This document shows positions 14,808-58,500 of a DNA stretch of 64,000 nucleotides, piece after piece. A program made the position numbers and the translations under genes. The notes below the pieces were generated by a model. It saw only the letters and a program-made list of their open reading frames with translations, had not been told where the DNA came from and did not search any database. Numbering within the stretch: position 1 is the first letter of the stretch; each line of letters opens with the position of its first letter. Source of the stretch: a virus; the IMG/VR virus record IMGVR_UViG_3300032782_000006, positions 1 through 64,000 of that record; one strand, given 5' to 3'.

Positions 14808-15659
14808 TCAGGTTAGGGAGTACATACTGAAATAATATATGGCGGGAGAATATGTCGCACATGATATCATTACAGCCAAGTTGACTACACTTGATGTAGC
14901 GAGTACTAAAGCAGTCTGTGGCAAAACTGGAGTGGATCCTGAGTTCAAGGTAGCTGTATAGGGGCTTGAAGATCCAGTAAATGCAACGGTCAACGAGTTA
15001 TTAACTACACCTGTCTGATTAGTAAATAAAGAACAGGTGACCGTAAGAGTACAGTTCGGTACAGTTGAGCTGGCAACTATAGAGGTAATAGGATGTGTTC
15101 CTCCTCCAGCCGCGAATGTAGCAACATACGTTCCACCGCTTGTAGTTCCAGTAGTTAGGGCTGGAATCGTAGTCGCAACTGGTGTGAACACAATTGGTGT
15201 TGCAGCCATTGGGACTACAAGGGTAGACAATGTTGGAGGTCCAGTGATTTTTACAACTGCAGTGAACTGAATCAAATCTTTTTTGACTTCAGTTGTAAAT
15301 GATTTCAACAGACCGTAGTAAGACCAGCTAGCACCGTTCGGGAATAGGATGGTATACAAGTTGATAGTCTGGTTGATAGATGCATTGTAAAGAGCCTGTT
15401 GACCTGGATCTGTGGCAACATAGTTCCCGGTCATTGTTGCATCTCTACCGTTTCTTCGACCAGGTTTCCATTCTTTATAGATACCGGAATCCTGGTTGGT
15501 AACATCGATTTCGGCAGTGTCCATCAAAGGAACTGGGACTCCAGTATCTTCAACTTCTGCAATATGTGTGCCGTCTATCGATATTAAAATGTTCTTTGCA
15601 ACAGTCGCCTGACTGCCTGCATAGGTGGATATTAACCCACCAAACTGATTTGTAGCCAT
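14808..15659 (-). CDS. Major tail tube protein with C-terminal Thr-rich beta extension
   Basis: EIDVTNQDSGIYKEWKPGRR..GNYVATDPGQQAL..YTILFPNG is a siphovirus tube pattern. Confidence 0.85.
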   Translation of the reverse strand: MATNQFGGLISTYAGSQATVAKNILISIDGTHIAEVEDTGVPVPLMDTAEIDVTNQDSGIYKEWKPGRRNGRDATMTGNYVATDPGQQALYNASINQTINLYTILFPNGASWSYYGLLKSFTTEVKKDLIQFTAVVKITGPPTLSTLVVPMAATPIVFTPVATTIPALTTGTTSGGTYVATFAAGGGTHPITSIVASSTVPNCTLTVTCSLFTNQTGVVNNSLTVAFTGSSSPYTATLNSGSTPVLPQTALVLATSSVVNLAVMISCATYSPAIYYFSMYSLT

Positions 15660-27909: not shown

Positions 27910-28068
27910 TTGACATCAACTCCAAAAGCACTAAAATAAAAAGTGCTGCTATAAAATAAGACAGTATAAAAATACTGTAATTCGTTTTTTAAATTGGAGA
28001 GTTGCAGCACCATGAAAGTAGCCTCATGAAATTAAATTTCGATCATTGGCTGTACACTATTTTAGAGG

Positions 28069-37168: not shown

Positions 37169-38590
37169 TTATTGGGTTTTATAATGCTGTTCTTCATTCG
37201 TAACTTCATCAGGAGTCATTGATTTCTGTCGAGTATATTCTGTAGGGTCTTGGGGTTTTTGAGTAGAATCGTCTTTGGGAAGTTCAGTACTAGATTGTTT
37301 TAGCCATTCCCATTCTGCTCTCATCTCTTCAAGTTCTTCGGGAGTTTTTGGAGGGAGTCCCAGCAACATTCTGTACTCGTTGATATCAATAACTTCGATT
37401 TCCGCTGCGCCTTGAGCGCGTAACTGATCAAGCACTCCGTTCTTGAATTTACGAGGTGGAAATTCTATAGAGATGGAATAGTCAAGGTATCCGTTGTATT
37501 CAAGTACTTTTTGAAGTAAGGGAGTGAACTGTTCGACGATGTGTCCTTGCATTCCGCTAATGAACGAATCCAATAACTCTGCCTTGGCTTCGTCCGAACC
37601 ACCCAGCAATGCTCCATCGGTAGCAATGAAATCTGCTGGGGAGAAATAACTGGAAAAGAAGTTGTTGATTCTAATGATTGTGTTAATCGCCATATCATTA
37701 ACAGTCGCCCCTACTTCTACTACTTTGAAATTTGAAGGAATTACAAAATTGTTATTTTTAGACCAGTTTGAAACTATACTTTTAGCAAGCTCGATATCCC
37801 CGGGTCTTGGATTTTCTACCTGGATGAAAATTGAAGGAGCCCCTACTCGATTTACAGATTGCATTTGAGCAGTCCAAGCAAACTCAGATCGTTGAAACCA
37901 AGGAACTAGATTAAAGAATAGAGGAAGGCCAACAACATCATAATCGTGACTAGGTGGTCTAAAGTGAGTAACAGATCCAAGTTCGAAGGGTTGTCCAAGA
38001 TAGTTTGTTTGATAATAGTGAATTGACATATCTTCCACACGGAATACAATCCCAGGAAGAAGAAGACCGAGAACGTCCTGTGGAGCATAAATCACCGAAA
38101 TATTTTTCCAAGGTACCGCCCGGAAAGAGGCTGCCGGTAAGTCCCTAATCATTTTTAGTTCCCAAAATCCGTCATCTGCTTGATCAATAACGTAATTGAT
38201 AACGTACGCATCAAAACAAAAACAGTCTAGGGCTCGATGCATCTGTTTATAAAGAGCAACTTCTTTAGTTTCACACATTTTTGTGAGACGTAAAGCAAGA
38301 TCTTCATCTTTGTTACCATCTTTATCTGTAACTTTGATCACAGGAGGTTTGGGAGGTAACACCAGATTGATCAATTTTAGTGCCAAACTTGTAGCTTCGG
38401 CGTTATTCCGAAGCTTCATCATTGTAACAATCGTAGTATCTTTATTTTCCCATTGGACAGACTGGTTTGGGAATATATAGACATATCCTTGTTCATAAGT
38501 AGGTGCAGCGGCCTTTTTTTTTCCCGATCCAGGAGGTCTACCTCGCCGCCTGGGGAGCATTTGTGCCATTGCATTAGTTTTATTGATCAT
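37169..38590 (-). CDS. Portal protein
   Basis: 473 aa, HFRPP..GLPL, IDINEYRMLLGLPP C-terminal portal motif, conserved leader. Confidence 0.85.
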   Translation of the reverse strand: MINKTNAMAQMLPRRRGRPPGSGKKKAAAPTYEQGYVYIFPNQSVQWENKDTTIVTMMKLRNNAEATSLALKLINLVLPPKPPVIKVTDKDGNKDEDLALRLTKMCETKEVALYKQMHRALDCFCFDAYVINYVIDQADDGFWELKMIRDLPAASFRAVPWKNISVIYAPQDVLGLLLPGIVFRVEDMSIHYYQTNYLGQPFELGSVTHFRPPSHDYDVVGLPLFFNLVPWFQRSEFAWTAQMQSVNRVGAPSIFIQVENPRPGDIELAKSIVSNWSKNNNFVIPSNFKVVEVGATVNDMAINTIIRINNFFSSYFSPADFIATDGALLGGSDEAKAELLDSFISGMQGHIVEQFTPLLQKVLEYNGYLDYSISIEFPPRKFKNGVLDQLRAQGAAEIEVIDINEYRMLLGLPPKTPEELEEMRAEWEWLKQSSTELPKDDSTQKPQDPTEYTRQKSMTPDEVTNEEQHYKTQ

Positions 38591-44153: not shown

Positions 44154-44307
44154 AACTAGTATCGATTATATTTACTTCAAAGACATATTATTTGTTTTGT
44201 TCATTTAGTTATTACTCCAATTTATTTTTTTCAGGTGAATTTGCGGGACATTGTTTATTCAATAATTGTCCGAAAAGTATATATAATTTAAAGACTTATT
44301 AGAGAAT

Positions 44308-44781
44308 ATGATATTAACTGAGCGAGGGCGACCAAGTAGATCAGTGTCGTGGGATAGACAAATACCGATAAGTCTATTTATAAATCCCAAGACTGATCAC
44401 ATATTTAAGGGGACTACTGACGAAAAGGGGAACTTGAATATTCATACTACTAAATGGTCTTTTCATAAATGTACTGTGATTGAGGGGGATTACAATCCAT
44501 ATCAAAATCAAATTACTGTGCCTGTAGATTGTACTGTTTGGACAGCGAGAGTTGGGAATAAGAGTATGATTTCATCTCTCAAAAAAGGGAATACTAAAAT
44601 GACAGTAATTGTTCATGAAAACAAAGTGGATTTTTATGAAAAATTCTTTAATAATTCACTGACGAGATTGGATGAAATTGTACTGCGTAAAAATCCAGCG
44701 GAGGCATGGAAGGCAATTGAAGCAGAGAAAGTGAGGAAGTTTATGAAAGAATTGAGAGAGACGTCTGAACAAACAAATTAA
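44308..44781 (+). CDS. Hypothetical protein, probably leaderless
   Basis: ATG about 25 nt after a consensus promoter TATA (44268-44295). Confidence 0.7.
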   Translation: MILTERGRPSRSVSWDRQIPISLFINPKTDHIFKGTTDEKGNLNIHTTKWSFHKCTVIEGDYNPYQNQITVPVDCTVWTARVGNKSMISSLKKGNTKMTVIVHENKVDFYEKFFNNSLTRLDEIVLRKNPAEAWKAIEAEKVRKFMKELRETSEQTN

Positions 44782-44891
44782 ATATTTATATAGTTTGCAG
44801 ATATTCTATATAATTGAGATAGAGACTAAGTAAATATTAGATAGAAGTAGTATACTGAACTGTGAATAAAATTAAGTAGGAGTTAACAATT

Positions 44892-45242
44892 GTGAAGAAG
44901 ATAACGGATCGGTATATAAAAATTCTGAATCGGCAAGAACAAGATTTGTTGAAGTTGATGAAACGGGAAGATAAGGTGTTGAAGAAGTATAACGGAGATT
45001 TTGATTTTATATATGGGTATGAAGTTTATGGAGTGAGCGAAGACGGGAGGTTGATGATACGGCACCCAGATCAAGGGTATATGTTGATCGAAGAGAAAGT
45101 GTGGGTACGGATGATACTGTATGAGTATGCTGCGTATTTTAGAGATGAAGACGAGGCGAGAGAGATGTTGACGAGGATACCAGTGCTTAATAAATATGTG
45201 GATACCGAAATGGCATACCTATTTCCAGGAGAGTATGCATGA
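44892..45242 (+). CDS. Hypothetical protein, paralog of 55698-56003
   Basis: YEVYGVSEDGRLMI..GYML.EEKVWV vs YQVYGFSSDNRLLL..GWFLGEAKSWV. Confidence 0.7.
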   Translation: MKKITDRYIKILNRQEQDLLKLMKREDKVLKKYNGDFDFIYGYEVYGVSEDGRLMIRHPDQGYMLIEEKVWVRMILYEYAAYFRDEDEAREMLTRIPVLNKYVDTEMAYLFPGEYA

Positions 45243-45502
45243 AAAATTATATGACGGCTATTTATAGTGATTCTGAAATGACAAAAGAAGCGTGGTTGGA
45301 AAAAAGTGGAGATAAACTTAAACAAAAAGTGATGAGTAAACAAAAACAGTATGGGGCGGATGGAGCGCAACTTATACTCAAAATGCCGAGACAAGAACTG
45401 TTTTACCAGAAGATAAGAGAACCACAACCTGAACCCAACCCAGGAGAGATTGTGGGGCAGGGAACTGCAAAAGCTCAACTCACCCTAATTAGTGATCCGT
45501 AA
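45239..45502 (+). CDS. Hypothetical protein
   Basis: ATGA overlap and GGAG RBS. Confidence 0.65.
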   Translation: MKNYMTAIYSDSEMTKEAWLEKSGDKLKQKVMSKQKQYGADGAQLILKMPRQELFYQKIREPQPEPNPGEIVGQGTAKAQLTLISDP

Positions 45503-45574
45503 AGTATAAATATTTTTCGGAATGTAATAGTTTGGAAAAAAATCGGAAGATGTTTATATATAGAGATCATTGGG

Positions 45575-45743
45575 GAGTAGTGACAGGGAATCCCTGTTGG
45601 ATTTTGGATGAAAAGATATCTATACCGCCGTTGATGGGTTGTTGGCACAGCCCGTCGAGGGAAAACTCATCAAAGTATATTTAAGTCGGTCAGAAATTTT
45701 GGCAGGTGTAAAAGCCTGTCAAATACTGCTATATCTTTTTTTT
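45575..45743 (+). ncRNA. Candidate ncRNA (element B), homologous to element C
   Basis: Own TATA (GGAAGATGTTTATATA), GGATTTTG..GAAA, GATGGGTTGTTG hairpin, terminal hairpin plus T tract. Confidence 0.55.
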
Positions 45744-46258
45744 ATAAATAAATGTGTCCGGAAAGTTTATATATTTTACAGATATTAAAGAAATATCTTG
45801 TAGGTAGCCCGCGCCAGGAATTTTCGGAAACGTGATCTTTTGAAAAACCGCGCTGAGAGAAAAAATAAAAAATCTTTCTTTTTGAGAATCTGCCGCGATC
45901 TCTGAAAAAAAGATTTAGCTGCCCGAATCTGCGCGGATTTCAGCGGCTCCGAAATTTATTTCCAGCGCTGGGCTTTGACGCGGGAAATCTGAGAACCCGG
46001 CCGCGAGCGCGCTAGGAGAATCCCCCAAATCTCGAGGATCCAATTCCTAATTCCTATTTTGAAAATGCTAAATCTTGCCGCAACTTTTATTTTCTACTCG
46101 GCTTCTCGATTCCGGAGGCGGGTTCGGCGCGCTCAGAGACAATTCCTTTTTTTTGATTTTAAAAATTGCGGCAAAATACAGATTTTAAAAAAGTTGCCTT
46201 AAGATTCGGAAAAAGAGCAATCGTTGAAAATTAGGAAAAAGATTAGAAAAAAGTTAGA

Positions 46259-46339
46259 TTATCGTCGGGGATGCCGGCGATGACCACGATGTCCGTGCCG
46301 AAATAATCTAAAGATATGCCAGAGATGAAGCAATCCCAT
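46259..46339 (-). CDS. His/Arg-rich micro-peptide (26 aa)
   Basis: MGLLHLWHIFRLFRHGHRGHRRHPRR, with GGAG upstream. Confidence 0.4.
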   Translation of the reverse strand: MGLLHLWHIFRLFRHGHRGHRRHPRR

Positions 46340-46344
46340 TTAGA

Positions 46345-46536
46345 TCATCTCCAGCGGTGATTAGGCCCGTATGAGGAATGATGCCAGCCCGAGAACGAAT
46401 GATAACCGGAATGATGATGATAACTCCCGAAATGATGCCCCCAATCTGCGAACATGAAATAATGAGAGATATCGATATGCATTACCGCGTCAAACACGCT
46501 CATCACAGAAAAAAGGAAAGAGTGGGGATCGATCAT
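46345..46536 (-). CDS. Small His-rich protein
   Basis: WGHHFGSYHHHSGYHSFSGWHH, GGAG RBS, ATG overlapping the upstream stop. Confidence 0.5.
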   Translation of the reverse strand: MIDPHSFLFSVMSVFDAVMHIDISHYFMFADWGHHFGSYHHHSGYHSFSGWHHSSYGPNHRWR

Positions 46537-46727
46537 ACGAAACTCTCCCAGGCGCCGTTTATGCATTGTCCGACTTGAATTAGTTCGCAGTGCGCGGTAT
46601 GATTTATCATATCAGGAACGCAAGTCCCGAGCGTGAAAACATTTTTCCCGAAAACGAGAAGCGGGGAATTTATACTGCAAGAGAGTATGTCCAACAATTG
46701 ATTCAAGTTTGCTATGTGTTCTATCAT
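46533..46727 (-). CDS. Hypothetical early protein
   Basis: GGAGAAC RBS behind the consensus promoter. Confidence 0.6.
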   Translation of the reverse strand: MIEHIANLNQLLDILSCSINSPLLVFGKNVFTLGTCVPDMINHTAHCELIQVGQCINGAWESFV

Positions 46728-46792
46728 TTTATTGTTCTCCTTATTTTCTTTTTGTCAGCGCAGGTTTCCTTATTCTTCCTGCAATACCTATA

Positions 46793-46821
46793 ATGTCCGT
46801 AAAATATATAAACTTTTCGGA
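46793..46821 (-). promoter_or_regulatory. Consensus viral promoter TCCGAAAAGTTTATATATTTTRCRGACA (BRE+TATA)
   Basis: One of about 11 copies. Confidence 0.85.
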
Positions 46822-47622
46822 TAAGCGAGCTTGAGGAGACAAAACGTTTGGAGAGAATCTGAAAAAAGATCTAAAAACAGAAATCTAAAAAAGAGAAGAC
46901 CGGAGCAGACGGTCTCGCATCCGCCTCTCTCGGTCTTACCCTGCTTGATAGCACATAGAGTGTGTATCTACTAATATATCCTTGACCGAGCCGTTACTAG
47001 GGTGTGAGAGAATAAAAACCTAGCGACTCGTCTACGCAAATTACCTTTGTCACTGTCGCAGATGTTACTAAATGGCGTTTACGGAATGGGTCCGCCCGTT
47101 TAAAAAACGATTTCACCGATTCATTTTTTCGTTGCCGCAACTCTGCGTTGCAGATCAGGCACCTAATCACAATCCGACCAAAGACGCTAATGCCCATGTA
47201 TAAGACATAAGCCCCCATCTTATAAAGACCCTAACTCTACAACATCTCAAACCGCGCACCCTTTGGCATCTGATTGCGGCGACTCGAACGGAACGCACTA
47301 ACCGGCTTCCGAGGGCGAGGAGGCGGGCAGGGAGGCCGGAGGCGAGAGAGACAGAGAGGATGCCAATGAGACATGCCCTACTGTCCTGCCCTACTATCCT
47401 ATCCTGTCTATCCTATCTCATATACCCTATGCGCACATAGCAATGAGTCAGGGCATATATCTCCCCTTTATAGGGCACATCATATTACATCTCAGCCCAG
47501 ATTCGGATAGGAGATATGATCTGTATAATTTATTTCGCGGCCCGATCAGATGCGGCAACTCAAAGACCGGCAATAGGAATCCGATTAACCAACCCTACAT
47601 ATCAGAGGGCATGCAATCTAAA

Positions 47623-47657
47623 CGGATCCCCTATAGGATCCCCTATAGGATCCCCTC
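47623..47657. repeat. Tandem GGATCCCCTATA repeats
   Basis: About 3 copies, 12-nt period. Confidence 0.8.
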
Positions 47658-47847
47658 ATCGCCCTAGAATGCCCTAACCAATCGAGTTAGAAAATAGTAT
47701 CTATTAATCGTCTCCCTTTTAGATAAATCACTATTTAAAAAATAATTAGGGGAACAATCTCACTATTTTTTAGGGTTTAATCGCGGCCAAAAAGTTAAAT
47801 AGTTGCCAATAATTCCCTAATTTTTTTGTAGTAGTATTCCTCCCTGA

Positions 47848-47890
47848 GAGCTATAGGCTTCTATAGGAGCCTATAAGAGCCTATAGGAGC
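47848..47890. repeat. Four 10-bp CTATAGGAGC-type tandem repeats
   Basis: ctataggctt ctataggagc ctataagagc ctataggagc. Confidence 0.85.
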
Positions 47891-48130
47891 ATGACACAGC
47901 ATAGCATGGAGGGACTATGGCAGGGACAGGGACGCGGCATATGGCAGGACAGGGAGACGGGAGACAGGGCAGCTGAAAGCGCAGGGAGCACACGCGTTGA
48001 AAAAGTGGGAAACTCGAGGCGATAAAAAAGCTGGCGATTTGGAAAAGGAGGGATATCAAAAACAGAGTGGTTAAAAAAGAGTGGGAGTAACCCACTGAGT
48101 AAAGCGTCTAATACTGCAAGAACATAACCT

Positions 48131-48376
48131 TTAGCAGCATCTCTCAAATACTGGATCTTCGCATTCCCAGAGCTGTCCTGGGTAGAGTGGTGGCCTGTAT
48201 ATTCCAGTTTCCGTCACTGTCAAGTCGTATATATCGTTTATACCCTCAAACTCTTCTAACGCACCTGCGAGTGACCAACAATCTCCATCTTCATCCCTCA
48301 TCCAGACCGCACTTGCTGGTTTTGGTATTAGGCTATGCAATTTTAACAGCGCTTGTGTAATTGTCATTTCAGTCAT
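48131..48376 (-). CDS. Hypothetical early protein
   Basis: GAGGAG RBS and promoter at 48403-48431. Confidence 0.7.
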   Translation of the reverse strand: MTEMTITQALLKLHSLIPKPASAVWMRDEDGDCWSLAGALEEFEGINDIYDLTVTETGIYRPPLYPGQLWECEDPVFERCC

Positions 48377-48402
48377 TTGTCAGTTCTCCTCTAATACATA
48401 CT

Positions 48403-48431
48403 ATGTCTGTAAAATATATAAACTTTGCGGA
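48403..48431 (-). promoter_or_regulatory. Consensus viral promoter
   Basis: TCCGCAAAGTTTATATATTTTACAGACAT. Confidence 0.85.
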
Positions 48432-48472
48432 TAAAGGATGTGAGCGGTTTGGCTCACACAGGGAATATCTAT

Positions 48473-48751
48473 CTAATACTGTAAGAACAGGACTAAACCA
48501 TAGAGCAATAACGCTGTGAGCAATATCGCTGAAACTGAGAGGATAACAAAATCAAGGTTCGTGTCCTCTAGTTGGTGTGAGGGGGATGGAGAAGGGAGTA
48601 TATCCCGATGCTGCGCATGATAAGCAGCCATCCCTCGCCAGTCATTGTCGTCTTTCATCTGTTGCCAAACCGGATCTGTATCATACAGCAGGATCAGCTC
48701 CAGTACGAGTATATAATCCATCAGGGCCATACAGAAGCAGGGCCGCGTCAC
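48473..48751 (-). CDS. Small membrane-anchored protein (start uncertain)
   Basis: C-terminal TM segment. Confidence 0.45.
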   Translation of the reverse strand: MTRPCFCMALMDYILVLELILLYDTDPVWQQMKDDNDWRGMAAYHAQHRDILPSPSPSHQLEDTNLDFVILSVSAILLTALLLYGLVLFLQY

Positions 48752-48853
48752 TTATAGCTATCGTTTCAAACAGCTTCCACGCCTCCCACTCTTTATGAGC
48801 ATATAACTGTTCAGCCAGGCTCAGGTTAGTGATCCCAATCATCTACAATCCCT

Positions 48854-49132
48854 CTACTGGAATCTCCTAATCACAGCCAGAACCTGTTGTTTCACCCAGT
48901 GGCTTGAACAAGAGATCATGGGGAGCATGGCAAACCATTTCTTGCTAGTTCCAAGAGCGGGATCTGCGTTATGGAAATCGCAGTAATGGAACAGTTCGTA
49001 TCCAGGAGCCATATGTGTAGCTGAGGTGTGGCATCCATCTAGGATCCAAGTCATACCGTGGTCGCTGAATGCGGTTCCGATTGGGTGTGCTGCGAGCGTT
49101 GCAAAATCTGTAATTGTGTTCAAATCGATCAT
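48854..49132 (-). CDS. Hypothetical early protein
   Basis: GGAGAAC RBS and promoter at 49201-49230. Confidence 0.7.
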   Translation of the reverse strand: MIDLNTITDFATLAAHPIGTAFSDHGMTWILDGCHTSATHMAPGYELFHYCDFHNADPALGTSKKWFAMLPMISCSSHWVKQQVLAVIRRFQ

Positions 49133-49200
49133 TTTCTGTGTTCTCCTTATTTATCATTTTGTGTCAGCGCAAGGCATCTGTTTCACCTTGCAATAACTAC

Positions 49201-49300
49201 TATGTCTGCAAAATATATAAACTTTTCGGATAAGCAAGAAAAGAAGAGTGATTTTTCAAATAACCTAATAAAACCGATAAATATATAAACTTAGCAGACA
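49201..49300. promoter_or_regulatory. Divergent pair of consensus promoters
   Basis: Minus-strand copy at 49201-49230, plus-strand variant CCGATAAATATATAAACTTAGCAGACA at 49274-49300. Confidence 0.7.
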
Positions 49301-49615
49301 ATCTACCAAGTAGCTTGGGACAAAGCTAGTCCTAGCATCGTCTAGGCGTATCGAATGTTGACTAGAGGCTTGGTATTGACCTCTAGGAAATCGGATGCAT
49401 AATATAAGGGAGCTAGGGATTGAAAAATATCAATTTCTAGCTAAAAATCTGAAAAATATAAAAAGATTGCGGAACTCTAAAAATGGCCGCGCTTGTATAA
49501 TAAAGCCTGTAATTTTTCAGTCTAAAAATAGTCAAGATTGGTATTTTTCGAGTAAATGACCTATAATCACACCACAAAAGTATCCAAAAATGAATTCAAG
49601 CATAAACTCCCTCTT

Positions 49616-51040
49616 TTATTTTGAAAATCCCATCATTCTCCAAATATTTTCTCCAAACGACGATGCTAGGGAGCTTCCTTCTGTAATAGAAGCATCAAAT
49701 CCTTCTTGTTTTATCAAATTGAGCTCAGTTATACCCCAAACTAAACTATCTAACCGATCAGGACTCTTTTCCGCCCCAGGAACCCATTCACATAACTGGT
49801 CTTCCAATTCACGGAACGTCCCTACATGATGAACACGACCTTGTTCATAAAGAGACGACACCGGCTCTGCCCGAATAACTTTTCCTCTAGATGCGTGAAC
49901 TGCCTTAAACGGAACTGATGCATCCAACATCCTAATCGTATGTTCGACCATATCGCCTCCATTATTGACCTCGCCAACTACCAGATTTGCCTGATGAAGA
50001 TGAAATGCAGAAATCACCGCTTTTCCCCATTGTTGCGGCGTATCATGAATCGTATAATCTCCTAGAACATATCCATGATTATTAGCATCTGCCGCGACTA
50101 CTATAATCCCAGTATCATCAGACCCCTCTTTAGAGGTAGTAGCCGGATCTACACCAACCACAACATAGGTATATTGTGCAGGCGGTTTGTAGACTCTATT
50201 ATCGTCAATAATGTCTCGTTTCCAAAGCGCTTCAGGATTATCTGAAAGAAAATCGCCTTCTAGCTCTTGTCTCCCCAACCTAGTCCCTTTATATTTATTA
50301 ATAATTGTCGAAATAAAGACAGGTGAAAGGTTGCAATAATTTTCTTGAGTATTGCCGCGAGTCACCACGGTACATTTTCTTCCCTTATCGTCCATCCTTT
50401 TTTCTAATTCTATAAGAAATTTAGTCGGTCTGGGAGTAGAAGATACTATACAAAGAGGATTTTTGCCTAATCTGAGACCCATCATTAGATTATCAAACGT
50501 CTCCTCTGGCCGCAACCATTTTGCGATTTCGTCACACCATAAAAAATCAGATTGGGGACCTCGCGCCTTATCCGGTTCGGATCCATAATAAAAATGAGAC
50601 ACTACTTTATTTGGCCAAATCAGCTTTTTTAAAGACGGGATAAACGTTGGATAAAAATCTTTAGGGCAACACGCTAGGATACCGGATTCCCCATCGATCA
50701 TTAGATCGCGCACATCTTCGGCGGTAGCTCCGACTAGATTAGGGTATTTATATCCGCCATAACGTACAGCCCAAACGAACGTTTCCGCTGAGGTTTTGGT
50801 TTTACCCCATCCTCGCCCAGCTCGGATATTCCAGATGAAACAGCCGTCCTTTCCCCATTCGTCTGGTGGAAGCTGGTTATCTCTAGCCCAGAACAACCAA
50901 TCTTTTTTAAAAAATTCTAGTTGAGAATCAGGAATAGATTTTAGAAACTGTTCCTGCTCATTTTTCGGTAGGCTGCGAAGATAATCCGCTGAGTATCGAT
51001 GATCTAATCTCTTCAGGACTGGTTGCGTCGACGTTGACAT
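49616..51040 (-). CDS. terL: Terminase large subunit
   Basis: RAGRGWGKT Walker A, WCDE Walker B, VGVDPA and SPDRLDS nuclease motifs. Confidence 0.95.
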   Translation of the reverse strand: MSTSTQPVLKRLDHRYSADYLRSLPKNEQEQFLKSIPDSQLEFFKKDWLFWARDNQLPPDEWGKDGCFIWNIRAGRGWGKTKTSAETFVWAVRYGGYKYPNLVGATAEDVRDLMIDGESGILACCPKDFYPTFIPSLKKLIWPNKVVSHFYYGSEPDKARGPQSDFLWCDEIAKWLRPEETFDNLMMGLRLGKNPLCIVSSTPRPTKFLIELEKRMDDKGRKCTVVTRGNTQENYCNLSPVFISTIINKYKGTRLGRQELEGDFLSDNPEALWKRDIIDDNRVYKPPAQYTYVVVGVDPATTSKEGSDDTGIIVVAADANNHGYVLGDYTIHDTPQQWGKAVISAFHLHQANLVVGEVNNGGDMVEHTIRMLDASVPFKAVHASRGKVIRAEPVSSLYEQGRVHHVGTFRELEDQLCEWVPGAEKSPDRLDSLVWGITELNLIKQEGFDASITEGSSLASSFGENIWRMMGFSK

Positions 51041-51419
51041 TTACATTCTCGTTTTGGTTTTTATTATCTGACGTTATATGTTGTCTTTCGCCAAAGTCGT
51101 CTGGATATCGACGAGATAACATCCAAGTATCGTAATACGGACTATTATTTTTCAAAACCTTCTCTCGTATTCTTTGAAGGCATCCGCGAGCGCAATCAGC
51201 CTCCGCTTTTTTTATTCGATCATGAAAATCAGTATAAATAGTATCTTCGCCGATATCTTTTTCATGAGCCCCTTGTTTCATCCATTCGTTAAATGTTTGA
51301 AACGCAATTCCTGCAGCCTGACATGCTAGACGATACGGCATTCCTAAATCGATATTTTCAACTAAAATCTGAGTTCGTTCTTCGGTTAATTTTAGAGGTC
51401 TCCCTCTTCCTCGTGACAT
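50958..51419 (-). CDS. terS: Terminase small subunit
   Basis: GRPLKLT..ACQAAGI..TFNEW HTH and WMLSRRYPDDFG, directly upstream of terL. Confidence 0.85.
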   Translation of the reverse strand: MSRGRGRPLKLTEERTQILVENIDLGMPYRLACQAAGIAFQTFNEWMKQGAHEKDIGEDTIYTDFHDRIKKAEADCARGCLQRIREKVLKNNSPYYDTWMLSRRYPDDFGERQHITSDNKNQNENVNVNVDATSPEEIRSSILSGLSSQPTEK

Positions 51420-51484
51420 TTAATGGCACTCCTATATCTATAAAAATATAGAGAGTATTTAAATACCACTCTACAAAAATCTTT

Positions 51485-51721
51485 CTATGTATTTCTACGA
51501 TTATTGAGATAGTTCAACCCTTCTGGGGTCAATTTTACATATGCCACGTTCCCTCTTTTATCAAAAATCACCAGATTTTGTTCTGCTAAATTTTCAAGAA
51601 CTTCTCTTGTCCTATCCTCTGAAATTTTTAACTTACTTGACACTGTTTTTAAAGTGGCTCTCGCCCTAAAATGAATAGCAGTTAACGTTCTAAACGGAAA
51701 ATCGTTAGGTTTTGCATTCAT
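51485..51721 (-). CDS. Winged-HTH protein
   Basis: TLKTVSSKLKISEDRTREVLENLAEQNLV..VKLTPEG. Confidence 0.75.
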   Translation of the reverse strand: MNAKPNDFPFRTLTAIHFRARATLKTVSSKLKISEDRTREVLENLAEQNLVIFDKRGNVAYVKLTPEGLNYLNNRRNT

Positions 51722-51960
51722 TAATTTTTGTCTCCGTCTACAAGTAATAGAATATTAGTGAGTAGCGTAATTTCCCCTCGAATTTGTTCCTCAATTTGAA
51801 CCGTAATCGGCAATTCCACTAACGGATTAGTTGGATTTAAAACCGCGTTACGGATAGATAGTGCCTCTAATAAGCTTTTTCGGATATATTGAAGACGATT
51901 CTCGGGAGTCAACGAGTTTAAATCCTCGTTTAACAAACTCGTGTCCGCACAATGCATCAT
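51721..51960 (-). CDS. Hypothetical protein
   Basis: Coupled ORF. Confidence 0.55.
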   Translation of the reverse strand: MMHCADTSLLNEDLNSLTPENRLQYIRKSLLEALSIRNAVLNPTNPLVELPITVQIEEQIRGEITLLTNILLLVDGDKN

Positions 51961-52420
51961 ACCATTTCCATTCGGATTGAAATTTTAGAGTCATATCTTC
52001 AAGTTTTTCATCTGGTGTTCCATCTGGAAACACCGTCAAAAACCAACTTCGAAAATCTTTTAGATCGTCGAGAAACGTTTCTGAAAAATTGATATAAAAA
52101 TCGTGTTTATTTTTTCTCAAAGATTTGTTGGGATGTTTTGCATGATACCGTCGTCTATCAGCTCGATACTCATCGTTTAACTCTAGATGTTTTTCAAGAT
52201 CGTTGAAAAAATTGGGATCAGGATTGAGTTTATATTCTATCGTGGGATCAAGATACTTTTCAGGAGTACCGTACCATTCCGATATTTCGTCAACGGTAGG
52301 AGTAAAATCCAGTAATGAGAAACAATACCATTGTATCTCATTCCAACTGATAGTCTGACGAGTCGAGTTCATGATCCGGCTTCTCATCATGATCACAATC
52401 CTTCTCATAAACAAAATCAT
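51848..52420 (-). CDS. Hypothetical protein (start uncertain)
   Basis: 190-aa ORF. Confidence 0.55.
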   Translation of the reverse strand: MILFMRRIVIMMRSRIMNSTRQTISWNEIQWYCFSLLDFTPTVDEISEWYGTPEKYLDPTIEYKLNPDPNFFNDLEKHLELNDEYRADRRRYHAKHPNKSLRKNKHDFYINFSETFLDDLKDFRSWFLTVFPDGTPDEKLEDMTLKFQSEWKWYDALCGHEFVKRGFKLVDSRESSSIYPKKLIRGTIYP

Positions 52421-52703
52421 CTAATTTTAGATGGGAGTAATCAGTAATAATTGGTAAATGTCTCCAATATAGAGACATACATGGAGACGTGTGAGAAATA
52501 GTTTTTGGAATTACATATTTTGTAACTGGAGGATACGTCATTTTGAAATTAAGCAAAGAGTGATGAGGTTTATGATCATTAATCCGCTTTTTTGCTATAG
52601 ACGTGCCCTCCTAGAGCCCCTGGTGGGGAGGGATACCTGGGTAGGCCATGCAAAGTATGAGTTCCTTGTGAAATCTATATATATATCCATTTCATTAGGA
52701 AAC

Positions 52704-53168
52704 TCAAATTAGGTTTTCTTGTCGGAACCATTCTGTAATTGTAGCTTCGGCTTTAGCTGTAGTTTCAAATTCAAAAACGTCTTTTATTTTTTTCCAATCA
52801 ATACAATGGTTTTTGTATTGAGTTATCAAAGATGATTTATTTTTTTCGAACTTTGTCATCCTAAACTCGTTTCTACTTTCTTCCTGTTTTTGTGCGAGAG
52901 TGATAACTTTGAGTTTGGATTGTTGTAATTCTTTAATATGTAATGCTTGCTTTTTTTCTTCTTCCAACCGGATTATATCTAACTGTTTTTCATAGATTAG
53001 ATGATCGTAAAATTCAGGGACGATTCTTTCGTCTAGTATTTTATTCATTGCTTCAGATAATAATGTTGAAAGACTAGGAAGGTCATGTGACTTCTCACAA
53101 ATTTCCCATAAGTCAAGCAGTGATTTCTGGAGTTTTACAGTCTTGGATATACGTTCTATTTCAGACAC
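52704..53168 (-). CDS. RHH-like plus coiled-coil protein
   Basis: SKTVKLQKSLLDLW..SLSTLLSEAM, AGGTGAG RBS, GTG start. Confidence 0.65.
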   Translation of the reverse strand: MSEIERISKTVKLQKSLLDLWEICEKSHDLPSLSTLLSEAMNKILDERIVPEFYDHLIYEKQLDIIRLEEEKKQALHIKELQQSKLKVITLAQKQEESRNEFRMTKFEKNKSSLITQYKNHCIDWKKIKDVFEFETTAKAEATITEWFRQENLI

Positions 53169-53196
53169 TCTTTCTCACCTGAAAGATTCATTTTAT

Positions 53197-53332
53197 TTGG
53201 ACGAGGACGACGTCTTCGTCCAAGTCCTCAGACGTAAAATAGTGTACACTATTACTACGCCGTCACTGCGTCGGTGGACGACGTTTTTGGATTGACCCTT
53301 TTTAGGGTTGGACGAAAAGTTCGTCCACGTCC
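53197..53332. repeat. GGACG iteron-like and palindrome cluster
   Basis: About 7 GGACG/CGTCC, two hairpins, perfect palindrome AATAGTGTACACTATT at 53238-53253. Confidence 0.75.
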
Positions 53333-53387
53333 ATTTTTTTTGCGGATGTTTAGTTATGATTCGATCAAGAGCAATTAAAAAAACGAA

Positions 53388-53633
53388 CTATTTATCCAGG
53401 AAACCTTTCGATAAAAGGTCAAAGAATCCGTAAATATCTTTGTTCTGTAATAAAAGTTCTAGCTCTTCGCGGAACTTGTTCTCCTTGACGAAAATGTCAC
53501 GATTGAAAATGATTTTATTAATCTCGTTTTGACACTCTAAAAGCGTCAAGCGCTTCTTGAGTTCCGCAACTTCTATTTGATTTGCGAGATCATAGTTAGT
53601 GCATTCTGCACAAACACATTTAGACAGACACAT
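53388..53633 (-). CDS. Small Cys-rich coiled-coil protein
   Basis: CLSKCVCAEC, GGAGG RBS. Confidence 0.6.
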   Translation of the reverse strand: MCLSKCVCAECTNYDLANQIEVAELKKRLTLLECQNEINKIIFNRDIFVKENKFREELELLLQNKDIYGFFDLLSKGFLDK

Positions 53634-54033
53634 TCCTCCGGTAGTACCAGGGATCTAGAACGTCATGGAATTCTCTAAAGGTTTTTATTAGCCTAATCGA
53701 AAACTCTTCTTCTGACAAAATAGATGTATCTGCTATCATGGTACAATCTCAGTACCTAATTGATATGTCCCTGACCATATTTAAAACTATTCAAACAGTC
53801 ATTATCCAGTGGGTATCCTTCCCTACCAGGGCTTTAGCCCACCACGTTTTCCATTTTGCCAGAATATTAAGAACAATATCACAAAGTATAAATTCTTGCA
53901 AAAATAACATAGTACTATTGGAGAAGTACCACATTATCGTCACAAAAATTTAAGCTTTGACGATTTTGCGCTCTAAGCCTAGAGATTGTTCCACCAATCT
54001 CTGGCTTTTCCATTCACTGACAGTATTTCCTAA

Positions 54034-54492
54034 TTACCTATTTTCTGAATAATAACCCCATCCTTCGTCATGAGTATACAATTTAAATTGTTTATAATTA
54101 ATATTTGGAGAATCAGGTTCATCAATAGACGAATATACTCCTAAATTACTAATCCAAACCGCAGGCTTTTTACTATCCACAAATGGATAATCTGTTCCAA
54201 ACGATATCCAAACCATTTTTGGAGTTTGTTTTATCATTCTCTCCTCTTCACATTCAGGGATTAGGTTCCCAAACTTAGTCTTCATTTCAAAAAGAAATTT
54301 ATCAATTTTTGAATAAGTCTCATTCGATATATTGTCGTCCTCAAACGGATCATAAATTCGTTTTCCATTTTGGTATACTTCATATTCCAGGAACAGTCTA
54401 TCAATCGATATTGCATATCGAGTAACTAATTTTATACCATCATCTAACAATAAATTGTAATCAATATTGGGTATATTTTCTAAATTTATCAT
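54034..54492 (-). CDS. Hypothetical protein
   Basis: GGAG RBS, operon context. Confidence 0.7.
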   Translation of the reverse strand: MINLENIPNIDYNLLLDDGIKLVTRYAISIDRLFLEYEVYQNGKRIYDPFEDDNISNETYSKIDKFLFEMKTKFGNLIPECEEERMIKQTPKMVWISFGTDYPFVDSKKPAVWISNLGVYSSIDEPDSPNINYKQFKLYTHDEGWGYYSENR

Positions 54493-54512
54493 AATTTAGT
54501 TCTCCATTTCCG

Positions 54513-54725
54513 TTACAAATCGGATTCTTTAGTTACATGATAACTAAAATCTACAAGCTCATCATATGCACGATTATATGTTGCATATACATTCTCAGAA
54601 CTTAACGGGGAATAACACTCATTCCTACAGTCTAAATACGTTTTTACCTCGTCAATTAGCTCTTGCAACTCTTGAATAAAATCTAAAACGTCTTTTTTAT
54701 CAAGCCCTTGATCCAAATATGACAT
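54513..54725 (-). CDS. Hypothetical protein
   Basis: AGGAG RBS before ATG 54725. Confidence 0.65.
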   Translation of the reverse strand: MSYLDQGLDKKDVLDFIQELQELIDEVKTYLDCRNECYSPLSSENVYATYNRAYDELVDFSYHVTKESDL

Positions 54726-54757
54726 TTTATATTCTCCTTTTTTAAAAAGTATCAATT

Positions 54758-54970
54758 TTATATGTTTTGAAAACAAAAATGTAAAAACCTGCGATCAGTA
54801 TCACAAACTTCATTATAAACTCGTTCTACATCAAACTCAAGATTTACATTTTTGAAAGCTTTAATATACAATTCAAAAAAATTGAACGCATCTTTCTCAT
54901 CATCCAGATTCCCTACAAATCCCAATATTTCATTCGCGATATCCACTTCATTTATTCCATTGTTTGTCAT
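54758..54970 (-). CDS. Hypothetical protein
   Basis: GGAG RBS. Confidence 0.65.
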   Translation of the reverse strand: MTNNGINEVDIANEILGFVGNLDDEKDAFNFFELYIKAFKNVNLEFDVERVYNEVCDTDRRFLHFCFQNI

Positions 54971-55011
54971 TTATGCTCAGCTCCGTTGTTCTAAAAATTA
55001 ATAATAGTAGT

Positions 55012-55323
55012 TTATTCATCGTCAGAATCAAGCTCTGTCTCAAAAACCTTCAATTCGGGATATTTATCTAGCAATTCCCAACTTTCCGAACGTGCAATCT
55101 GCGCAAATGCAAATTCGTCTGAAACTACTTCTCCATAATCACGATCCCCTTCCCATTGAGAAGTAAATATCAGCACAAACTTTTTTGATTTTTTAAGTTT
55201 AGTCAACCCTAGATGTTTTCCAGTTCCACCGTTCGTATAATTACGTCCATCCCAAATATCTAGGTTAGAATTTGATTTTACACGAGCAACCACATTACCA
55301 TCATTATCATAAACATTTACCAT
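55012..55323 (-). CDS. Conserved-looking viral hypothetical protein
   Basis: NLDIWDGRNYTNGGTGKHLGLTKL..TSQWEG, first gene after the consensus promoter. Confidence 0.75.
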   Translation of the reverse strand: MVNVYDNDGNVVARVKSNSNLDIWDGRNYTNGGTGKHLGLTKLKKSKKFVLIFTSQWEGDRDYGEVVSDEFAFAQIARSESWELLDKYPELKVFETELDSDDE

Positions 55324-55394
55324 TTGTATCAGCCTCTTTGTCCAAAATTAATATTTTTGTGTTCTCCTTTAATCTTATTTCTTACAATACCTAC

Positions 55395-55424
55395 TATGTC
55401 TGCAAAATATATAAACTTTTCGGA
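55395..55424 (-). promoter_or_regulatory. Consensus viral promoter
   Basis: TCCGAAAAGTTTATATATTTTGCAGACATA. Confidence 0.85.
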
Positions 55425-55477
55425 ACAATATTTAATAAAGAATCCTTCCAAAATAAATTTTCAAAAAAATAAATCTT

Positions 55478-55605
55478 TAAGGAATTTTATGAACCTAAAA
55501 ACGATAAGTAGTAATCCGACAGGTTGATAACAACAACCCATCGGTGACACCGCTATCTCAAATTTCGCACAAAATCCGATGATACCAGATATAGTATTTT
55601 TCCAA
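55478..55605 (-). ncRNA. Candidate ncRNA (element C), homologous to element B
   Basis: GGAAATGTTTATA promoter, GGATTTTGTG/CATAAAATTC stem, CCGATGGGTTG/CAACCTGTCGG hairpin. Confidence 0.55.
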
Positions 55606-55697
55606 ACATACTACTCTTTTCTACATTATAAACATTTCCTATTTTATCTATGTAATAATTTGGATTTATTACATAGGTCACATCCGTACAATATTAA

Positions 55698-56003
55698 TCA
55701 TTCCCCAGTTACGTTCTTTACATATTCCAGCATCAATCTCATATTTTCATGCAACTGCTCTATAATTTCTACCCAAGATTTGGCCTCTCCTAAAAACCAT
55801 CCATAGTCTTCATTATATAGTAAAAGTCGATTATCTGAAGAAAACCCATAAACTTGATACTCCATAGGATAAACCATTCCAGGATTGTTATCCCCAAGTC
55901 CATATTTAGTCCGAGTTCGTAAAAAATTACCCCTATCTGTCTCTTCATTCAACTTTTCTACAAATTCTTCGTCAATTACATAATTAGTAACTACCATAAT
56001 CAA
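55698..56003 (-). CDS. Hypothetical protein, paralog of 44892-45242
   Basis: Shared YxVYG motif block. Confidence 0.7.
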   Translation of the reverse strand: MIMVVTNYVIDEEFVEKLNEETDRGNFLRTRTKYGLGDNNPGMVYPMEYQVYGFSSDNRLLLYNEDYGWFLGEAKSWVEIIEQLHENMRLMLEYVKNVTGE

Positions 56004-56012
56004 ACTCCATGA

Positions 56013-56279
56013 TCAATATTCCCAAGACTCATGATATTTTCTACTAGCTGACCTTACTCCTAAAAATTCTTTAACAATTCCATCAGCTACAGTATGAGCC
56101 CAATCTATAAAGTTTTCTTGGGTTTTATACACTTTTTTATGTTGACCCTCTTCGATTTCATAGTTGAAATACATTCCGTCCTCGTCTTCATCAAATTCGT
56201 CAAGCGTATTTTCAATAAAAAAAGGAACGTACCCCAACTGCTCCAAATAATGTGACCGGATGGCTTCTTTAGTACTCAT
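56013..56279 (-). CDS. Hypothetical protein
   Basis: ORF in operon context. Confidence 0.65.
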   Translation of the reverse strand: MSTKEAIRSHYLEQLGYVPFFIENTLDEFDEDEDGMYFNYEIEEGQHKKVYKTQENFIDWAHTVADGIVKEFLGVRSASRKYHESWEY

Positions 56280-56344
56280 TTTGCATCATAAAATAGTATT
56301 ACCATCCAAATTATAAACTGATCTTGATCTTACTTAAAATTTAT

Positions 56345-56893
56345 TTAAAGTTTTTGAATACTATAACTTAGAGGATACGAATTATCTTCACCTTCTACTC
56401 TTTTTGAACTCCATTCCTCATTTTCTTCTTTAGCAATTCGTTTTCTCACTCTTCTAGCTTGATTTAAAAAAGTGTCATACTCTTTAGGATTCTCTTTTTG
56501 TTTAATCCTATATCCTATAATAGTAATCATTAACTCATTCAAGTTATGTTCCATATTTGATTTAGATTTTATATAATCATACATCTGCTCATAGATTTGA
56601 TCTCTAGTTAAACATTGATTATCTTTGGACTGGATTACTGTTGTTCCACTATACTCTTTTATTGCATCTTTTTTTTCACTCCGAACCATATTTTCTAGTC
56701 GGCTCAGAACTTTTTCAATTTTATCAAATTCATCTAGTATTTGTGGAATTTCTCCTAAATCTTTTCTCAATATAGTATCTATAAATATATCCTCTAATCG
56801 TTTCTTTGATTCTTTTAAAGTCTCTTTTGCATTTTCACATTTTTCTATTTTCTTATTTAGCTCCAAATCATTACCTCCTACACACATTCTCAT
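56345..56893 (-). CDS. Coiled-coil hypothetical protein
   Basis: 182-aa ORF. An internal GGAGGT suggests a later TTG start. Confidence 0.7.
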   Translation of the reverse strand: MRMCVGGNDLELNKKIEKCENAKETLKESKKRLEDIFIDTILRKDLGEIPQILDEFDKIEKVLSRLENMVRSEKKDAIKEYSGTTVIQSKDNQCLTRDQIYEQMYDYIKSKSNMEHNLNELMITIIGYRIKQKENPKEYDTFLNQARRVRKRIAKEENEEWSSKRVEGEDNSYPLSYSIQKL

Positions 56894-57151
56894 TCACGCT
56901 GTAATAAACGCGGTTCCTTCAGTTTGTTTTATATACTCTTTATATTCTCTGAATAATTGATGTTGAGTGATCAACTGTATAGGTTTATTTTGATCAGACC
57001 AGTGGACTGTTAAATCTCCATAAATATCTATTTTTACAGAATCTCTAACTTCTCCATCATTAATTCTATATTTTATACTTTTTATTAGAGTATCTCTCCA
57101 CTCTCCATACGTCATCGTCATGTTTGACCTCACCAAATCGTGAACGTCCAA
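56894..57151 (-). CDS. Hypothetical protein
   Basis: ORF in operon context. Confidence 0.6.
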   Translation of the reverse strand: MDVHDLVRSNMTMTYGEWRDTLIKSIKYRINDGEVRDSVKIDIYGDLTVHWSDQNKPIQLITQHQLFREYKEYIKQTEGTAFITA

Positions 57152-57447
57152 CCGTCATATGCCTGTATCCATTCAAGTCCAGCATAATCTATAATGATTT
57201 TGATATCTTCTACAGTAGCAGTATATGGTTTTAATAACTTCACATTTTCTTGTCTAGATTCTGGACTTAATCTATTCAACCATTTCTCAAACGGTTGTTT
57301 CCATTGTGGCCTATAATCAAAATTTATAAAAGGATCATAAATCATTACAATTTTATTGTACAAGACAAAATCTTTGATTACCTCTTCTTTTTCTGCATCG
57401 GTAGGTTGTTTTCCCTTTACTTCCATTGCAAATTCTCCAAATTCCAA
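57130..57447 (-). CDS. Hypothetical protein
   Basis: Follows the promoter variant at 57475-57503. Confidence 0.65.
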   Translation of the reverse strand: MEFGEFAMEVKGKQPTDAEKEEVIKDFVLYNKIVMIYDPFINFDYRPQWKQPFEKWLNRLSPESRQENVKLLKPYTATVEDIKIIIDYAGLEWIQAYDGWTFTIW

Positions 57448-57574
57448 CTTACCCGTTTTTTTCTAATTCTCTATATGTCTGCAAATTATTAAACCTTTTC
57501 GGAATAATTCTCTATAAAAAACTTTTAAAATACTTCGTATCTATCCTTTTTTGAATAATTTTCCCCTCCTATAC

Positions 57575-57778
57575 TTATTTATACCAATCTGAAGGTTTTA
57601 AATAATCGTCAATTATATCATGAATAGTTAAATATTCCTTTAAATTAGGCTTATCTTTATCTTTAAATATTATCAGTACATGATAAATCCCTTTTTCATC
57701 TTCATTATATTTATCAATTCCATCTATTATTTTTTGTAATAATGCTACTGTTTCTTTTTTAGTTACCAATTTATTCAT
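57575..57778 (-). CDS. Hypothetical protein
   Basis: GGAGGT RBS. Confidence 0.6.
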   Translation of the reverse strand: MNKLVTKKETVALLQKIIDGIDKYNEDEKGIYHVLIIFKDKDKPNLKEYLTIHDIIDDYLKPSDWYK

Positions 57779-58012
57779 ACCTCCAATAATTCAATTCATC
57801 ATTTGTTGCTTCTAAATAATCTTCTCTAAATATTTCATAATCATCATCAATCTCATCTTTTCCAGTTTGTTCTAAATATGCTTTTTGACAATCATATTCT
57901 AGTTCATCATCTTCGTAACAACCATCCATAGTCATAATCAAGTTCACCTCAATACATAATTGTCCGTAAAATATATAAACTTATCGGAACAACTTCTAAT
58001 AAAAAAAAGGGC

Positions 58013-58240
58013 TTATTTCCTAAGCCTCTCCCAAACTCCTTTTTTATCAGTCATTTTCCATTTTGCAATCATTACCTCAATATTATCCGAAATCATTTTC
58101 TTTTCTTCGGTAAGTTGGGCTATCTTTTGAGATAGTGCATTGTAATCATCAATTAACATATTCAGGTTCAAGTTTATCATTTGCAATTTCTCTTCCGGCG
58201 ATCTATGACATTCTATTATTTCGGCTTCTTTCACTGACAT
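58013..58240 (-). CDS. Small coiled-coil protein
   Basis: GGAGTGA RBS, promoter variant at 58280-58309. Confidence 0.65.
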   Translation of the reverse strand: MSVKEAEIIECHRSPEEKLQMINLNLNMLIDDYNALSQKIAQLTEEKKMISDNIEVMIAKWKMTDKKGVWERLRK

Positions 58241-58500
58241 ATCATTCACTCCTTTCATTTACTATTTCATTAAACAGTAAATGTCATTAAATTATATATA
58301 CTTTTCGGAAATTATAGGGGGCAACAAATTTTAGAATTGATAATCAACAACAGACAGAATTAGTCGACAAATTATTAATTATTGTTGACTAATTAAAAAA
58401 TCATAAATTTGCAGACGAGTCATATGTAAAATAGTGGATAGGTTTATATTTTACAAAGCTGTTCAAAAATTGGTATTTTTAAAAGAAACGGAGATAGAAA

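Follow-up and report, generated by a model that had tools for sequence, protein, structure and literature searches.

Two diverged non-coding elements behind duplicated early genes of an orphan archaeal tailed virus: candidates for small structured transcripts

The virus record IMGVR_UViG_3300032782_000006 of IMG/VR is a genome of 77,567 bp with direct terminal repeats, whose first 64,000 nucleotides were analysed (the window in what follows). Two non-coding elements of this window, B and C, stand inverted relative to each other on either side of a 10-kb segment, each behind one of two paralogous genes of the YxVYG family. They are homologous by position, show constraint, fold in a strand-specific manner, and contain neither a shared open reading frame (ORF) nor a known RNA family. 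We propose that B and C are small structured non-coding transcripts, or RNA elements of operon tails equipped with promoters of their own, and we put the probability of this reading at roughly one half; their transcription and the limits of the transcripts are putative. The elements and the genes next to them are the following.

45545-45743, + strand: element B.
55639-55463, - strand: element C.
44892-45242, + strand: YxVYG-family paralog 1, 116 aa, acidic, isoelectric point (pI) 5.27; it opens the operon ending before B.
45239-45502, + strand: 87-aa gene between paralog 1 and B; the stop of paralog 1 is overlapped by its start.
55698-56003, - strand: YxVYG-family paralog 2, acidic, immediately upstream of C.

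When all ORFs of the virus were compared with one another, 44892-45242 and 55698-56003 came out as the only paralog pair of the neighbourhood, with an expectation value (E) of 4e-9 pairwise and of 5e-7 in a genome search. Paralog 2 counts 101 aa from its TTG start (99 aa in the database). The two genes are 34% identical in protein, 46% in DNA and 37% at third codon positions, the last value being near saturation. The 87-aa gene is unrelated to paralog 1, and has no paralog beside C.

When the promoter block is included, B and C form the top non-self local alignment of the whole genome under three of four scoring schemes; in the remaining scheme they come just behind a window that overlaps the edge of B itself. 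This alignment exceeds 500 of 500 dinucleotide shuffles (z 5-7), and without the promoter block it is still above 2,000 of 2,000 shuffles. The motif GGATTTTG-N3-GAAA has two matches in the window, in B and C only, for 0.15 expected. The top match of B is found just behind the paralog, which had been defined independently, and on the correct strand, a coincidence with a p of about 1e-3 (our estimate, from roughly 2-4 windows among about 1,800-4,000). By itself the sequence similarity of B and C is marginal, and we find their homology convincing because its position matches that of the paralog gene. These comparisons support an ancient duplication that would have copied the gene plus its downstream non-coding stretch.

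With third codon positions near saturation, unconstrained non-coding DNA of equal age should be unrecognisable. Given this divergence of the paralogs, the surviving TATA block, the GGATTTTG..GAAA..AGATA motifs and the hairpin look selected. By our count, the promoter-like block (GGAAGATGTTTATA at 45545-45558, + strand, in B; GGAAATGTTTATA at 55639-55627, - strand, in C) keeps 13 of its 14 positions, and the hairpin region about 22 of the 32 that align, a 12-nt identical run among them. No extra copies of this 12-mer hairpin core were found beyond chance. The components of the two elements are listed below; the promoter block, GAGTAGT, GAAA motif, central hairpin and ACTYATC that a preliminary description of this DNA had reported as shared were each recovered, in place or close to it.

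45545-45560, + strand: promoter-like block of B, GGAAGATG then TTTATATA.
45575-45581, + strand: GAGTAGT of B, 15-21 nt past the TATA box; 5' strand of a weak 4-bp closing stem, or promoter-proximal element.
45582-45598, + strand: B-specific 7-bp hairpin GACAGGG/CCCUGUU, pair probability 0.96-0.97.
45599-45618, + strand: linear motif of B, GGATTTTG-N3-GAAA (45599-45613) then AGATA.
45631-45658, + strand: central hairpin of B, TTGATGGGTTG/CAGCCCGTCGA, 11 bp (12 in the minimum-energy fold), three U.G, loop UUGGCA.
45665-45671, + strand: ACTCATC of B, whose ACUC is able to pair with GAGU.
45701-45720, + strand: B-specific tail hairpin GGCAGG..CCUGUC.
45736-45743, + strand: T8 run, likely archaeal termination signal closing B.
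55625-55639, - strand: promoter-like block of C, GGAAATG then TTTATAAT.
55610-55616, - strand: GAGTAGT of C, 9-15 nt past the TATA box; 5' strand of an 8-bp closing stem if transcribed.
55547-55592, - strand: C-specific long hairpin, with GGATTTTG-N3-GAAA and AGATA at its apex.
55577-55554, - strand: linear motif of C, GGATTTTG-N3-GAAA (55577-55563) then AGATA.
55516-55544, - strand: central hairpin of C, CCGATGGGTTG/CAACCTGTCGG, 11 bp, two adjacent G.U, loop UUGUUAU.
55503-55513, - strand: UACUACUU, closing-stem 3' strand of C, overlapping ACTTATC (55509-55503).
55463-55501, - strand: T5 (55497-55501) and T7 (55463-55469), likely termination signals closing C.

On the sense strand, the segment from GAGUAGU to ACUYAUC folds at -38.3 kcal/mol in B and -37.3 kcal/mol in C (z -4.07 and -4.32); none of 200 shuffles was as stable, and minimum-energy fold and centroid coincide in both elements. 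The antisense folds reach -20.9 and -19.4 kcal/mol respectively (z -0.78 and -2.43). A local scan placed its z minima on B (+) and on C (-), with the adjoining coding DNA near 0. In a partial genome fold scan (42.7 kb, one strand, 1,068 windows), z values of -4.07 or lower were found in 8 windows (about 0.7%), meaning that B and C are each a top-1% fold, and not unique.

The alignment of the central hairpins comprises 11 pairs, 7 of them invariant, 3 changed on one side (U.G>C-G, G-C>G.U and U.G>U-A) and 1 changed on both (U-A>C-G), every cell being paired. All five substitutions preserve pairing, and each pair that is not Watson-Crick is a G.U on the sense strand. The four pairing-keeping changes listed in the preliminary description are thus correct, and 11 of 11 pairs are kept in both copies. 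Sense-only stability, together with the G.U pairs of the sense strand, speaks for an element that acts as RNA and is read the same way as the neighbouring genes, rather than for a DNA palindrome; being rich in G.U pairs, the hairpin would form on the gene-sense strand only.

Outside the central hairpin, whose pair probability is about 1.0 in every context tried, the folds are less uniform. The 8-bp closing stem of C (GAGUAGUA/UACUACUU) has a pair probability of 0.76-0.95. The conserved GGAUUUUG pairs downstream in C, and upstream or weakly in B. The GAGUAGU-to-ACUYAUC folds take the same closed three-hairpin shape in both elements, a shape that arises in 3.75% and 6.25% of shuffles; the likeness is fragile. 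Because stems depend on context, and in view of the promoter register reported below, the shared core is best described as the central hairpin plus linear motifs, a four-way junction being unproven. Of the "conserved scaffold" with "variable loops" proposed at the outset, the stable central hairpin stands; the closing stem of B (pair probability 0.03-0.24) and GGAUUUUG, whose partners differ, do not fit. An analysis of the B/C pair with MAFFT and RNAalifold misaligned the hairpin, and its result was discarded.

Promoters of this virus are of the archaeal B-recognition-element/TATA (BRE/TATA) type. An extended early-promoter consensus, CCGAAAAGTTTATATATTTTRCAGAYAT, is present in about 12 copies, every one inside 44270-58308 (14 kb). 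In the early promoters, TAGTAGGT or TAGTATGT comes 11 nt past the TATA box; in C, TAGTATGT stands at this distance too, in gap-free register with them, and the GAGTAGT of C is in gap-free register with their TAGTAKGT element. From these alignments, GAGTAGT may be a promoter element and not RNA; the RNA element first proposed is supported, by its strand-specific structure, for part of the stretch. As a candidate promoter of a small RNA gene, both B and C have a conserved TATA block, that of C in early-promoter register. The sole relative of the portal protein among GenBank phages, at 28% identity, belongs to a virus assigned to Methanomicrobiales; this match and the clustering of the early promoters place B and C in what appears to be the early region of an orphan virus infecting a methanogen-type archaeon.

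No Rfam 15 family attains its gathering score anywhere in the window, and around B and C chance-level matches (E <= 10) are all that was found, in agreement with the earlier expectation that neither would belong to a known family. ARAGORN detected no tRNA or tmRNA gene in the window. In a six-frame comparison, B and C had no reading frame in common, and the lengths of the indels between them are not divisible by three. A coding function was rejected as well: the AUG within the hairpin would open peptides of 16 and 26 aa, which agree in Met-Gly-Cys only. No family of tandem or direct repeats extends over B or C. Except for A/T runs and the reciprocal hairpin match, no antisense target of at least 12 nt exists elsewhere in the virus, so that the suggested loop complements were not found there. 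B and C match no described RNA family, yet they are an ordinary kind of thing. Stand-alone small non-coding RNAs are a general class in methanogens and prokaryotic viruses, and B and C resemble that class, with which they were compared as a whole: an ORF-free unit of ~100-170 nt between protein-coding operons, with a putative BRE/TATA-type promoter, stable strand-specific hairpins and an oligo-T end. They differ from it in having neither a family match nor complementarity to a viral target.

The explanation that we prefer is that an ancient segmental duplication, in the early region of an orphan tailed virus with archaeal (methanogen-type) promoters, would have copied a small acidic early gene plus the intergenic stretch behind it, and that B and C would be the non-coding tails of the two copies, since diverged. 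In both copies, selection would have retained the TATA-box block, the linear motifs GGAUUUUG-N3-GAAA..AGAUA and ACUYAUC, one 11-bp G.U-rich hairpin, and an oligo-T run ahead of the next early promoter. Each unit would give a short structured non-coding transcript, of roughly 100-165 nt if the ends are correctly placed, coming from its own promoter, from the 3' end of the upstream operon mRNA, or from both. We would guess that a viral or host factor recognises the hairpin and the single-stranded motifs beside it, and that the RNA acts through protein binding and not through antisense pairing.

Several observations weigh against this reading. Without the promoter block, the B-C alignment scores about as well as the best background windows of coding DNA (19 vs 18-20, 43 vs 41); since these rivals lie inside a 647-aa ORF, we consider them as noise. 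A covariance model built from C alone gave B 11.1 bits, with an E of about 1, fourth in the window. With only two sequences, covariation is without statistical power, and its shuffle control was uninformative, 270 of 500 shuffles reaching the observed value. The arms outside the central hairpin are without sequence similarity, and their folds are not homologous. The 4-bp closing stem of B (GAGU/ACUC) is lost as flanks are added, its pair probability dropping to 0.24 and then to 0.03. Shine-Dalgarno sequences of early genes begin 21-26 nt past the TATA box, which suggests starts near +22 to +24; by this rule the start of C would be near 55603 and that of B near 45582-45583, and the usual TATA-to-start distance (about 22-24 nt) would leave GAGUAGU outside either primary transcript. 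An upstream TATA-like box or operon read-through could bring GAGUAGU into the transcript, and folds from the inferred starts are still structured (z -3.71 and -2.67). Finally, T runs of at least 7 number 45 in the genome for 27 expected and, being this common, mark transcript ends weakly.

The main rival, which is possible if somewhat unlikely, holds that B and C are purely cis-acting operon tails, that is, structures of the 3' untranslated region that stop, insulate or stabilise the upstream mRNA, with no separate small RNA. The features that bear on it lie on either side of the elements.

45757-45785, + strand: consensus early promoter downstream of B.
55396-55424, - strand: consensus early promoter past C, which drives the gene 55323-55012.
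55648-55676, - strand: perfect 11-bp inverted repeat CTATGTAATAA-N7-TTATTACATAG, between the paralog 2 stop and the C promoter block.
45496-45521, both strands: TCCG-N18-CGGA dyad enclosing a TATA-like box, an early-promoter look-alike just upstream of B.

As had been described, each element follows a YxVYG gene (with one gene between in B) and precedes a consensus early promoter. Both therefore sit between an operon end and a strong promoter, with T runs after them, as operon tails would. No oligo-T run separates the paralog 2 stop (55698) from C, so that operon read-through into C is expected, and the sharing that is robust is limited to a hairpin. Against this, the best conserved part outside the hairpin is the TATA box with its upstream purines, which would be superfluous in a pure 3' untranslated element, and the TATA block of C is in register with functional early promoters. 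Moreover, the hairpin is not directly flanked by a T run on its 3' side in either unit, and archaeal termination is not known to need a hairpin. The closest analogy for paired cis-acting elements is with lambda nutL/nutR and HK022 putL/putR, early-region RNA elements of lambdoid phages. There too, two paralogous structured elements lie in opposite orientation in the early region of a tailed virus, with compensating changes that keep stems while loops differ. However, nut and put sites lie downstream of the main early promoters and modify a bacterial RNA polymerase, whereas B and C are upstream of strong promoters and have an archaeal host; no sequence or structural resemblance was shown.

Some further features of these flanks were recorded. 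The TCCG-N18-CGGA dyad sits at the stop codon of the 87-aa gene, and its box is a possible alternative start for a longer B transcript. The + strand at ~45475-45599 is unusually structured (z about -3.5 to -3.9). For the inverted repeat at 55648-55676, a stable hairpin is predicted in read-through transcripts. Past B (45757-46340, + strand), the early promoter faces ~450-550 bp without any ORF of at least 60 aa on that strand; the stretch is GC-richer than its surroundings, and could be a long non-coding transcript or a leader.

It is unlikely that each RNA serves the adjacent YxVYG protein as its cognate partner, whether scaffold, decoy, guide or antitoxin, the pairs having co-diverged. The gene and the element appear duplicated together, with strand and transcription direction kept, and the loops and base pairs of the hairpin differ between copies, both as such a partnership would have it. 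The proteins fit it poorly. Acidity is common to the four members of the family (pI 4.4-5.3, net charge -3 to -24); in this they differ from the usual nucleic-acid binders and come closer to the small acidic early proteins known in other viruses, and the structure model matches no known fold, RNA-binding folds included. In B, another gene separates the protein gene from the RNA, and no antisense target was found within the virus. A duplicated protein-plus-RNA module had been proposed in the preliminary description; its joint duplication holds, but no tie between RNA and protein appeared beyond adjacency and co-duplication, and acidic proteins, the missing match to an RNA-binding fold and the missing viral target leave the guide, decoy or antitoxin role unsupported.

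A known model for such a role is the type III toxin-antitoxin system (ToxIN-like), whose RNA is made up of tandem repeats and encoded ahead of the toxin gene. B and C recall it as a small protein gene with an adjoining same-strand structured RNA on a mobile element. They differ from it in being single-copy and placed after the protein gene, next to an acidic partner without a match to a solved fold. A ToxI-like identity was rejected on the basis of the lack of tandem repeats and the downstream position. Comparison of the YxVYG model (predicted local distance difference test score, pLDDT, of 70) with the PDB for a ToxN/AbiEii-type fold gave Z <= 4.3, a missing match that excludes no fold. The broader idea that B and C are independently transcribed trans-acting RNAs, each in complex with its own YxVYG protein or with a titrated host factor, appears just as improbable. 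If true, archaeal viruses would possess a two-copy early system of RNA and protein that has not been described, its specificity residing in the diverged hairpin and arms.

The YxVYG family is itself a near-orphan. The paralogs belong to no Pfam or PHROG family, and a word-indexed search of 5.8 billion proteins returned the query alone. An exhaustive profile search of 1.84 billion representatives yielded two convincing relatives, P0003 (E 9e-7) and P0004 (E 8e-6), which brings the family to four members among these representatives; each is a singleton, encoded on a contig of 1.6 or 2.0 kb. The C-terminus of P0004 is extended by a long acidic region, probably coiled-coil. Profile scans of viral and genome collections did not find the family, nor was it present in 21 distant portal relatives, in terminase relatives or in the Methanomicrobiales virus. 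The AlphaFold model (pLDDT 70.5) begins with two helices, continues with a three-stranded meander and ends in a helical bundle; no significant fold match was obtained (Foldseek E >= 0.2; VIA-align Z <= 4.3), and the ESM Atlas gave no usable match.

That the palindrome and the TATA block act as DNA, as an operator or a recombination site, with an incidental RNA fold, is quite unlikely. The arms do match as DNA at 8 of 11 positions in B and 9 of 11 in C, the region is full of promoter-associated dyads, and B and C are inverted around a 10-kb segment. The mismatches between the arms, however, are G.T throughout when read on the sense strand, never A.C, in agreement with RNA pairing; the sole two-arm difference is symmetric, as expected for pairing and not for base-specific recognition; and the 12-mer core has no further copies beyond chance.

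We consider it very unlikely that two AT-rich, promoter-bearing intergenic regions look alike by chance and have no function past the promoter. Unrelated coding windows do equal the alignment scores of the transcribed part, the covariance model gives an E of about 1, and a z of about -4 is reached in roughly 1% of windows. Chance would nevertheless have to account for the coincidence in position with the paralog genes (p about 1e-3), for a 12-nt identical run within a hairpin whose substitutions all keep pairing, for GGATTTTG-N3-GAAA at two sites only where 0.15 are expected, and for sense-only stability in both units.

Lastly, B as a degenerate manganese riboswitch-like four-way junction of the yybP-ykoY family (RF00080) is extremely improbable. 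RF00080 is the only family matching B, with 15.4 bits and an E of 0.017 (Infernal, 231-nt search). The resemblance lies in UCAUUGGGGAGUAG of B (about 45562-45580), identical at 14 of 14 positions to the 5' (L1) consensus UUGGGGAGUAGC, and in a core predicted to fold as a closed three-hairpin junction. The gathering score is 45, and by our scaling E rises to about 5 for the whole genome and all families. The alignment skips the junction helices, B lacks a P1.1 partner, and the P3/L3 consensus GCGUCAACAUACUUG..CAUGGCGC, seen in the E. coli mntP alignment (41.6 bits), is absent from it. C carries no more than AAAGAGUAG, and RF00080 does not match it at E <= 10. The 14-mer of B is between TATA box and expected start site, and what comes after B is not a metal-transport or membrane-protein gene to regulate but the T8 run, the early promoter and the ORF-free stretch. 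Membership was rejected as a look-alike that rests on one 14-nt identity.

Relatives of the element were sought in several collections. Exact-pattern scans of IMG/VR gave chance matches only: with motif plus hairpin these fell within an ORF of a different virus, and with just the hairpin, in GC-rich coding DNA; a scan with the early-promoter pattern had no match. Blastn against GenBank phages returned no relative of the element, nor did the covariance model of C match in the 21 distant portal relatives and the Methanomicrobiales virus. Two copies of the element are thus all that is known, with no homolog in viral, metagenome, genome or phage collections.

The virus is equally isolated: no close relative was found in IMG/VR, JGI metagenome contigs, GTDB genomes or GenBank phages. 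Its window includes one reading frame of more than 4,600 codons, and the two head-packaging genes used to place it are as follows.

49616-51040, - strand: large terminase.
37169-38590, - strand: Mu-type portal.

A single-sequence search of IMG/VR with the portal had no match, and a profile search recovered 21 loci at 25-33% identity. The nearest relatives of the large terminase, at <=53% identity, are mostly from bacterial phages. Portal relatives are few, and protein matches at 40-55% identity were seen on short metagenome contigs. Judging from these relatives, mostly bacterial-phage for the terminase and few for the portal, the head-packaging module may be a mosaic. The disaggregatase-like gene of the virus, sought as a handle on the host, matched no genome locus. 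The only sequencing run matching the virus is probably the source DNA, and no RNA run was among the matches. Logan contigs of this run end exactly at early-promoter repeats, at 49197-49230 and 55420; their sequence is identical to that of the record, and they show no inversion joint between B and C. In the partial fold scan, three windows are more structured than B and C, 15401-15510, 27881-27990 and 23001-23110 (+), with z of -6.6, -5.8 and -5.7 from 25 shuffles per window; all three fall in the structural-gene region, opposite in strand to the large genes.

The importance of B and C is limited by the fact that the virus is an orphan, that the element counts two members, and that its link to the protein is one of adjacency. 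To our knowledge, almost nothing is known of the non-coding RNAs of viruses that infect methanogens, and B and C would offer a starting point on how these viruses regulate early transcription or manipulate their host.

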